This document shows positions 8,394 through 9,011 of a DNA stretch of 23,815 nt, piece by piece. The notes under the pieces were generated by a model, which saw only the letters and a list, made by a program, of their open reading frames with translations, was not told the DNA's origin and ran no database searches. Position 1 is the stretch's first letter; each line of letters starts with the position of its first letter. Position numbers and translations under genes: made by a program. Origin of the DNA: a virus (Duplodnaviria > Heunggongvirae > Uroviricota > Caudoviricetes); the IMG/VR virus record IMGVR_UViG_2850796239_000008; one strand, 5' to 3'.

Positions 8394-8422
8394 ATTAAAC
8401 ACAATTTGTTTTCTTATGTCAA
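8394..8422 (-). promoter_or_regulatory. Leftward early promoter candidate (pL-like): TTGACA-17-TTTAAT with overlapping palindromes
   Basis: Minus-strand -35 TTGACA at 8422-8417, 17-nt spacer, -10 TTTAAT at 8399-8394. Palindromes AACAC-GTAAT-GTGTT (8421-8435) and AAACA-CAATT-TGTTT (8397-8411) overlap the -35 and spacer. Confidence 0.5.
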
Positions 8423-8460
8423 CACGTAATGTGTTTTATGGTGGGTGTCATATGATGATG

Positions 8461-8937
8461 CTACAAAAAAGCCCGCTGATAGCGGGCTGATTGGCATATT
8501 ACTGTGATAGCAAGATCATTATTCCGGTGGGGATTATCTTTAATCCTGCCTCTCAAATATTTTTCTACATACTCATCGATTTCTTTTAGCCGGACTTCAA
8601 ATAGCTCAATCATTCGTTGTTGTTCTGAGCCCGGTAGCTGGTTAAACAACTCAAGAAGTTTTCGTTGGGATTCATTTAACCACAATTCAGAAGATTCCTG
8701 TTCTCCAAAGAGGAGCTCAGGAGGAGATATGCCAAGTGCCTTTCCCAATACGACAGCGTCATGTACTCCAACATTTCTGCTGCCCGCCTCATAGTTACCT
8801 ATACGCGATTGCGTCCATCCGCAGATTTCAGCAAGTTTTCCTTGAGATAAACCAAGCTTCTGCCTGCGCTCTTTAAGACGCATTGCAATTTTGTCATTGA
8901 GCCTACTAGCGGCAATTTTTTCGTTTTCTTTTTCCAT
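8461..8937 (-). CDS. racR: Prophage repressor, XRE-family HTH, 158 aa (RacR-type)
   Basis: ATG at 8935-8937; HTH region LGLSQGKLAEICGWTQSRIGNYEAG; 158 aa; divergent from a Cro-like gene across a 96-bp operator region. Confidence 0.85.
   Translation of the reverse strand: MEKENEKIAASRLNDKIAMRLKERRQKLGLSQGKLAEICGWTQSRIGNYEAGSRNVGVHDAVVLGKALGISPPELLFGEQESSELWLNESQRKLLELFNQLPGSEQQRMIELFEVRLKEIDEYVEKYLRGRIKDNPHRNNDLAITVICQSARYQRAFL
8465..8488 (-). terminator. Rho-independent terminator at the end of the repressor gene
   Basis: Minus strand reads AGCCCGC-TATC-GCGGGCT followed by TTTTTT; the hairpin overlaps the last 8 codons and stop of the repressor ORF. Confidence 0.6.
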
Positions 8938-8947
8938 TGCATCCTTG

Positions 8948-8962
8948 TATCACGAATCGTGA
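8948..8962. promoter_or_regulatory. Perfect 15-bp palindrome ATCACGAATCGTGAT just upstream of the racR RBS
   Basis: Exact dyad symmetry, 11 nt upstream of the racR start codon; candidate operator or 5'-UTR hairpin. Confidence 0.4.
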
Positions 8963-8982
8963 TTTACATAAAACACAAAACA

Positions 8983-9011
8983 GCTTGACTATATAACACA
9001 AGGTGTGTTTA
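8983..9011 (+). promoter_or_regulatory. Rightward early promoter candidate (pR-like) with overlapping dyad
   Basis: TTGACT (8983-8988), 17-nt spacer, TTTAAA (9006-9011); dyad AACACA-AGG-TGTGTT (8995-9009) overlaps the spacer and -10. Confidence 0.45.

Follow-up and report, generated by a model that had tools for sequence, protein, structure and literature searches.

Lambdoid immunity switches have been described in phage lambda, where CI and Cro act at the operators OR and OL, and in several prophages of Escherichia coli (E. coli), among them Qin (DicA, DicC and dicBp) and Rac (RacR, YdaS and YdaT) of strain K-12 and CP-933P (PaaR2, YdaS and YdaT) of E. coli O157:H7. The present analysis concerns a locus of this kind in a viral DNA of 23,815 nucleotides (IMG/VR record IMGVR_UViG_2850796239_000008; this whole stretch is called the window), namely the segment 8394-9011, in which non-coding DNA flanks a minus-strand repressor gene on either side. 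Very probably the segment holds an ordinary lambda-style switch of uncharacterised specificity, with a DicA-like repressor instead of a RacR-type one, and it is highly likely that its dyads are the DNA sites by which the repressor and a Cro-like partner control both early promoters.

In its manner of working the locus is closest to OR and OL of lambda. As there, the divergent repressor and cro genes lie about 96 base pairs (bp) apart (96 bp in the window), three dyads spaced by 23 bp lie over back-to-back promoters, and operators recur at the leftward promoter beyond the repressor gene. The positions of OR3, OR2 and OR1 of lambda relative to the start of the promoter PRM match the -19, -42 and -65 seen here. 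Unlike in lambda, where they measure 17 bp, the operators are 15 bp long and have a CAC-N5-GTG core, only half of a site stands at OR2, two leftward sites are present rather than three, and the repressor has 139 residues without an S24 self-cleavage domain.

The nearest system in protein family and gene layout is Qin. DicA is the best-matching characterised repressor, both proteins are short and share a LLELFxxLPxxEQ C-terminal region, and the order of cro-like gene, repressor, second repressed promoter and DUF1391 gene recurs there as dicC, dicA, dicBp and ydfA (PMC10448788). By contrast, the Cro-like protein of the window is unrelated to DicC, and the intergenic dyads of Qin, in our own reading, are of TTAGC/ACTAA type and are placed differently from the start codon. 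The short repressors of the Gifsy type (GfoR, GfhR and GtgR) are similar by description, being about 136 residues long without a cleavage site; this antirepressor-controlled family includes DicA and RacR (PMC3121763).

In genomic context the closest systems are Rac and CP-933P. The latter, compared here by layout, is the lambdoid switch of a cryptic prophage: its intergenic region measures 97 bp, palindromes at even spacing cover the two promoters, another set of operators lies at a PL-like promoter, and YdaT takes the part of CII (PMC8630535, PMC9986795). It differs in having four 18-bp palindromes with the half-site consensus GTTTAGTAA and a toxin-antitoxin pair after the repressor gene, which is absent from the window. 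With K-12 Rac the window shares the prophage backbone, a 95%-identical YdaT and a YdaT box over the ydaT ATG; its repressor and Cro have no sequence relationship to those of Rac, and the RacR operators read TAGGC-n3-GCCTA (PMC9638921). The element that hosts the segment is a Rac-like prophage (intR, xisR, recE, ydaE, DUF1391, ydaT and ydaU), and the segment is chromosomal in E. coli, being detected in 287 of 5426 complete genomes and at full length in 153. DNA homology to K-12 Rac ends at 8377 and restarts at 9267; given this break and the unrelated repressor and Cro, the element is therefore taken to be a Rac-type prophage whose immunity cassette has been exchanged. Judged by sequence, the switch is thus the immunity switch of a Rac-like lambdoid E. 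coli prophage, with a cassette other than that of K-12 Rac.

Dyads at the two control regions and their conservation

Every site in the segment fits a single 15-bp form, A-W-CAC-N5-GTG-W-T, with one mismatch in OL1 and only one half preserved in OR2. The sites are named here after their lambda counterparts, PR and PL being the rightward and leftward early promoters.

8995-9009: OR1, AACACAAGGTGTGTT (AACAC-AAGGT-GTGTT), perfect, in the PR spacer
8972-8986: OR2, AACACAAAACAGCTT (AACAC-AAAAC-AGCTT), half-site, centred 42 nucleotides upstream of the repressor ATG, with a 2-nucleotide overlap with the PR -35
8949-8963: OR3, ATCACGAATCGTGAT (ATCACG-AAT-CGTGAT), perfect palindrome, centred 19 nucleotides upstream of the repressor ATG
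8421-8435: OL2, AACACGTAATGTGTT (AACAC-GTAAT-GTGTT), perfect, with a 2-nucleotide overlap with the PL -35
8398-8412: OL1, AACACAATTTGTTTT (AACAC-AATTT-GTTTT), one core mismatch, in the PL spacer and -10

These dyads are real, non-random, regularly spaced and conserved in relatives. The form AWCAC-N5-GTGWT has three exact matches in 23.8 kilobases (kb), all of them in the two control regions, against an expectation of 0.10 and with none of 100 shuffles reaching that number; the looser AACAC-N3-5-GTGTT occurs twice in the same DNA (0.10 expected; 0/100 shuffles reach 2). The centres lie at 8956, 8979 and 9002 on the right and at 8405 and 8428 on the left, each step being exactly 23 bp. Moreover, 8395-8440 is a 46-nucleotide inverted copy (74%) of 8967-9012, which pairs OL1 with OR1 and OL2 with OR2.

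A preliminary description of this DNA had already placed a dyad over the rightward promoter at 8995-9009 and AACAC-GTAAT-GTGTT at the leftward one, and both are found as described. It also gave AAACA-CAATT-TGTTT at 8397-8411; these letters are indeed there, but the register is one base off, since relatives keep the arms constant in the register 8398-8412 while the first three centre bases vary. The spacer of three to five bases assumed at the time gives way to a fixed one, as every site has the same CAC-N5-GTG core. A perfect palindrome near the repressor start, regarded then as unrelated, does exist at 8949-8963, rather than 8948-8962. It has the same core, lies 23+23 bp from the rightward dyad and sits at -19, where nearly all relatives have a site, and is therefore taken as the third right operator, OR3. 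It is the sole site with T at position 2 (ATCAC, against AACAC elsewhere).

As a scan of one genome per species gave only 5 loci, IMG/VR was used, and loci were pooled from genomes, phage records and IMG/VR. The footprint set comprised 32 distinct intergenic sequences from the window's clade and from a clade with 84% identity. Across it, the 25 operator-arm columns are all invariant and 34 of the remaining 71 vary (Fisher p=2e-6), and the centres of OR1 and OR3 as well as the linkers between operators vary freely, including four of the five OR1 centre positions. At OR2 the AACAC arm lies inside an 11-nucleotide invariant block and the other half varies; relatives are likewise one-armed or degenerate there. 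On the left side, where 46 distinct sequences were compared, both arms of OL2 and the promoter-side arm of OL1 are invariant and the OL centres vary, the other arm of OL1 being constant within the window's clade. Purifying selection acts on the operator arms only.

The layout is equally persistent. Across 31 distinct loci the density of exact CAC-N5-GTG in the control regions is 57 times that in the flanks. Of 114 distinct locus types, 109 have such a site centred 19-22 nucleotides before the repressor ATG and another 65-70 nucleotides before it. The comparison of motifs among relatives, a check proposed in the preliminary description, supports its operator reading. The arms also co-vary with the recognition helix of the repressor. 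Helices of the form xQSR[IV]G-NYE pair with AACAC arms, (A/S)T(A/G)SR.G-NYE with G(A/T/C)CAC arms and S..SR.A-NYE with (T/C)TCAC arms; within each phage the right and left operators change together, and the helix types of Cro follow the operator classes. Two loci that share the C-terminal domain but differ in their Cro and have an unrelated N-terminal domain lack such sites.

Three further observations come from the pooled loci. A Citrobacter-type clade of six loci has a fourth site, CTCAC..GTGTT, 92 nucleotides upstream of the repressor ATG, where it falls after the rightward promoter and before the ribosome site of cro; the window has none. In Raoultella sp. BIGb0138 a repressor homologue, 59% identical and with an unchanged recognition helix, has no adjoining cro gene and is preceded by AACAC-N5-GTGCT about 50 nucleotides upstream of its start and by a second, degenerate site; this may be a domesticated or orphan copy. 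Finally, IMGVR_UViG_2574180332_000004 (58 kb) holds both a window-type repressor and an L010-like, 84%-identical one (L010 is introduced below), about 47 kb apart, which suggests tandem or neighbouring prophages of both immunity types in one host.

Repressor, Cro-like protein and promoters

The two regulators are encoded divergently by the following open reading frames (ORFs).

8461-8937, minus strand: repressor ORF, 158 residues as the window reads (normal form 139 residues), with an HTH_3 domain and no cleavage domain
9034-9276, plus strand: Cro-like gene, 80 residues, HTH_3, divergent from the repressor

The length of the repressor turns on a run of G. The window has GGGG at 8529-8532 where relatives have GGGGG, and this is its sole difference from NZ_CP065613 over 1021 nucleotides. 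The four-G version is absent from all 144 complete E. coli genomes with this stretch (80-nucleotide query; none of them matches at 99% or above and all span 81 nucleotides), and the 139-residue form is encoded through residue 139 in 35 IMG/VR loci. Homologues of the repressor align only to about residue 133-135. With five Gs the protein has 139 residues, ends in ...IKDNPPPE and stops at 8519-8521, about 30 nucleotides before a hairpin at 8470-8488. Two further single-base homopolymer differences, at 7818 and 3937, appear in the comparison with the nearest genome. The four-G run is either a private one-base deletion or a homopolymer sequencing error. The hairpin falls inside repressor codons because the window reads GGGG, which shifts the end of the ORF to 158 residues: the remark that a terminator lies within the last codons of 8461-8937 is thus true in the window's frame, and what had seemed unusual about it is a consequence of the private four-G run.

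The label RacR-type, given to this repressor earlier, has to be withdrawn. K-12 RacR and the repressor are not similar in sequence (best BLASTP E-value 2.1), and the RacR operator, in full (T/A)TAGGC-n3-GCCTA(T/A), has no match in the window even with one mismatch. The best match is DicA, with 29% identity over residues 14-135 (E 6e-15). Among NCBIfam models the DicA model NF007257 scores best, at 57.3 bits, which is under its 101-bit cut-off, with positions 4-131 of 135 aligned. Pfam finds only helix-turn-helix (HTH) domains in the protein, the test for a C-terminal S24 peptidase domain with an Ala-Gly cleavage site being negative. By these comparisons the protein, with HTH_3 at the N-terminus and a short helical part at the C-terminus, is classed as a short DicA-like prophage repressor in the broad sense, outside the curated DicA cut-off. 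Lacking a RecA-cleavable domain, it is not expected to undergo RecA-mediated cleavage, and for the same reason induction may proceed through an antirepressor.

The Cro-like protein does not align to YdaS (PF15943) or to DicC, and Pfam gives HTH_3 only; a relationship to DicC was considered and rejected, as the comparison yielded no similarity. Its HTH is instead a paralogue of that of the repressor (45% identity, E 2e-10), and the two proteins share a GWxQSR[IL]xNYE recognition helix. With paralogous HTH domains and the same QSR..NYE helix, Cro is therefore expected at the same sites as the repressor.

Promoter hexamers, assigned by eye and by conservation, and the repressor terminator are as follows.

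8394-8399, minus strand: PL -10, TTTAAT, 17 nucleotides from the -35, invariant in 46 distinct relatives; putative in function
8417-8422, minus strand: putative PL -35, TTGACA; TTGAC is invariant in 45/46 distinct relatives
8985-8990, plus strand: putative PR -35, TTGACT; the TCAA core is conserved in all clades
9008-9015, plus strand: putative PR -10, TTTAAA (17-nucleotide spacing) or TAAAAT (19-nucleotide spacing)
8944-8952, minus strand: putative extended -10 of the repressor promoter, TG-A-TACAAG
8470-8488, minus strand: intrinsic terminator of the repressor gene, an 8-bp stem with 6 GC pairs followed by TTTTTT, conserved after the stop codon in relatives

At the position of the PR -10 relatives carry TTTAAT, TAGAAT or TAAATT. 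Upstream of the repressor gene they have GTGGTAAAA or GTGATAAAA, followed by 5-9 nucleotides and then by the repressor ATG at the same place. With standard spacing the repressor transcript would start at the A of the ATG at 8937 and would thus be leaderless, as is the lambda cI mRNA made from PRM. Leaderless repressor mRNAs have also been reported for PaaR2 and RacR (PMC8630535, PMC9638921). A Shine-Dalgarno motif, AAGGA, is conserved before the ATG and, by analogy with lambda, could serve leadered transcripts from an upstream, YdaT-dependent promoter.

The sites and the promoter elements are closely interlaced, as the preliminary description had proposed in regarding the dyads as operator sets that overlap both early promoters, a view which the sequence comparison supports. 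The -35 and -10 of PR flank OR1, OL2 overlaps the PL -35, OL1 overlaps the PL spacer and -10, and OR3 overlaps TG-A-TACAAG. The locus has the attributes of a lambdoid OR and OL, namely divergent genes, dyads spaced by 23 bp over the promoters and matching sites at a second early promoter.

The assignment of sites to proteins, any cooperativity, and the promoter hexamers and start points are what we infer from the sequence. Dimers of the 139-residue DicA-like repressor would bind the 15-bp operators A-(A/T)-CAC-N5-GTG-(A/T)-T. Bound at OR1, between the -35 and -10 of PR, the repressor would block cro-ydaT and the replication genes; at OL1, over the -10 and spacer, and OL2, over the -35, it would block the DUF1391/recombination operon, the leftward control region being in effect an inverted copy of the rightward one. 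The half-site OR2, centred at -42 from the ATG and 23 bp from OR1, probably needs cooperative binding, and would adjoin the -35 of the promoter that drives the repressor gene itself. OR3, at -19, would lie over the spacer and extended -10 of that promoter and, when occupied, would shut off repressor synthesis. The Cro-like protein most likely binds the same sites, OR3 probably first.

Alternative readings and a possible hybrid switch

Several points weigh against this lambda-style reading. A generic promoter scan called neither PR nor PL; its two matches, 8491-8519 and 9015-9044, are no more than shuffles give. The PR -10 is ambiguous between spacings of 17 and 19 nucleotides, and the putative -10 of the repressor promoter, TACAAG, does not end in the usual T. 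Neither OR2 nor OL1 is a perfect site, and since the conserved arms of both abut or overlap promoter elements, promoter constraint may contribute to their conservation. The related loci share ancestry, and locus counts are hence not counts of independent events. Finally, in the literature no paper was found on this immunity type or on a CAC-N5-GTG operator.

Promoter constraint, taken to its limit, would mean that the arms are conserved as promoter elements only, their symmetry being incidental and without operator function. Several arms do abut or overlap a -35 or -10, among them the GTGTT of OR1 and of OL1, which abuts the -10, and the GTG of OR3 supplies the TG of an extended -10. Yet the spacer between -35 and -10 is not normally conserved, and here OR1, OR3 and OL2 keep both arms unchanged around inner bases that vary; in addition, the arms change with the recognition helix, at both promoters of each phage, which leaves this explanation barely credible. 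Very improbable, too, is the idea that the palindrome 8949-8963 is a separate site for another factor, such as YdaT or a host protein. Its outer bases, ATCAC instead of AACAC, and its T at position 2 set it apart, but its core and length are those of the other sites, its distance from OR1 is exactly 23+23 bp, 109 of the 114 related locus types have a site at -19 whatever their YdaT/CII type, and ATCAC..GTGAT doubles as a leftward operator in Aeromonas phage pAEv1818. YdaT itself was considered as its binder and rejected: the published YdaT boxes, ATGATT-n6-AATCAA (PMC11879457) and TTGATT-N6-AATCAA (PMC9986795), differ from the palindrome, and one such box is found elsewhere, at 9266-9283.

More has to be said on whether Cro takes part at all, since the sites could be operators for the repressor only, with Cro acting at other places or in another way. 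The cro ATG (9034) coincides exactly with a mosaic joint, beyond which cro and ydaT have 97% DNA identity to Actinobacillus phage vB_Apl-pPE4 and two viral contigs (loci L010, L078 and L085). There, Cro is identical over 80 residues, the repressor is only 62% identical and the operators have the outer bases TTCAC..GTGAG. An identical Cro beside different operator sets is therefore not strictly matched to one set, and in K-12 Rac YdaS does not repress racR (PMC9638921), both of which would suit a role for the repressor only. Against this stand the HTH of Cro, a clear paralogue of that of the repressor with the same QSR..NYE helix; the two intergenic regions next to the shared Cro, which have nothing in common beyond the ribosome site, the -35 and the CAC-N5-GTG sites; and the tracking of operator classes by Cro helix types. 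On balance a repressor-only role is unlikely, and control of both early promoters by repressor and Cro together is preferred.

Within this preferred reading, the switch of the window might be a natural hybrid, with different operators tuned to different proteins: OR3 to Cro and the others to the repressor. The repressor helix, TQSRIG-NYE, belongs to the class that uses AACAC..GTGTT, and OR1, OR2, OL1 and OL2 carry the ACAC..GTGT arms of that class. The helix of Cro is IQSRLA-NYE; the identical Cro occurs in phages with S..SR.A-NYE repressors and (T/C)TCAC..GTGA(G/A/T) operators, and QSRLA-type Cro helices otherwise accompany the (T/C)TCAC operator class. OR3 alone has T at position 2 and A at position 14 (TCAC..GTGA), as is typical of Cro's class. 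The idea rests on few independent lineages, and we hold it tentatively, as a possibility with the odds somewhat against it.

The surrounding prophage and its immunity type

Beyond the segment, the following features of the neighbourhood are relevant.

9273-9695: ydaT, the next gene rightward of the Cro-like gene
9266-9283, no strand assigned: YdaT box, TTGATT-CATGAA-AATCAG, which spans the ydaT start codon and is not a switch operator
8058-8276: DUF1391 ORF, left of the repressor, beyond the terminator

YdaT is 95% identical to the K-12 protein, and its box is one mismatch from the box published for CP-933P and close to that of K-12 Rac. An Rfam search of 7000-9800 gave no match at the switch itself, a Trp-leader-like match at 8463-8548 (26 versus 41 bits) being only the terminator hairpin.

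Several further elements lie to the left. An Ant/Rha-like ORF, 6333-7172 (279 residues), occurs in the window together with an isrK-like RNA, as in Gifsy-1. The RNA, at 7045-7121 on the minus strand, scores 66.8 bits against an Rfam gathering score of 50 and lies inside the 5' part of this ORF, whose long start may be over-called. We take the arrangement, an isrK RNA within a Rha/antirepressor-like ORF, to recall that of isrK and the antirepressor in Gifsy-1. LexA control of the switch was considered and rejected, there being no LexA box (CTGT-N8-ACAG) in the whole 23.8 kb; an SOS link of antirepressor-based induction, if any, would therefore not be encoded in the window. At 7203-7406 (minus strand) in the leftward operon, in the position that corresponds to that of dicF in Qin, there are sub-threshold Rfam matches to STnc100 (34 versus 47 bits) and DicF (28.6 versus 48 bits).

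Between PL and DUF1391, the non-coding leader at about 8226-8395 (minus strand) contains the blocks GGCAGGA, AAGTAGC, GGCATACGAA, GCGCAG.AG and AACGTTCCGCC, which are common to phages of Citrobacter, Enterobacter, Klebsiella and Aeromonas with otherwise diverged flanks (five loci). This leader gave no Rfam match, and no covariation supports its consensus fold (covariation term 0). It might act in antitermination (nut/put-like) or be another RNA element.

The switch is otherwise a textbook lambdoid one, and opens no new question. What is gained is an operator code and layout, defined from sequence, for an immunity type present in about 150 of the 5426 complete E. coli genomes, including Shiga-toxin-producing strains of O157, O145, O121 and O103, and in many phages of Citrobacter, Enterobacter, Klebsiella and Aeromonas. 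Correction of the RacR-type label matters in practice, as it would mislead an annotator into expecting RacR operators and the toxicity biology of RacR and YdaS. The comparison further yields three classes of helix-to-operator specificity and a recombinant with a shared Cro. If the tentative hybrid proved true, the opposite filling orders of repressor and Cro would be encoded by two outer base pairs per site; cassettes of repressor and operators would be exchangeable without cro, as Cro would read mainly the CAC-N5-GTG core; and Cro could act across prophages of different immunity.

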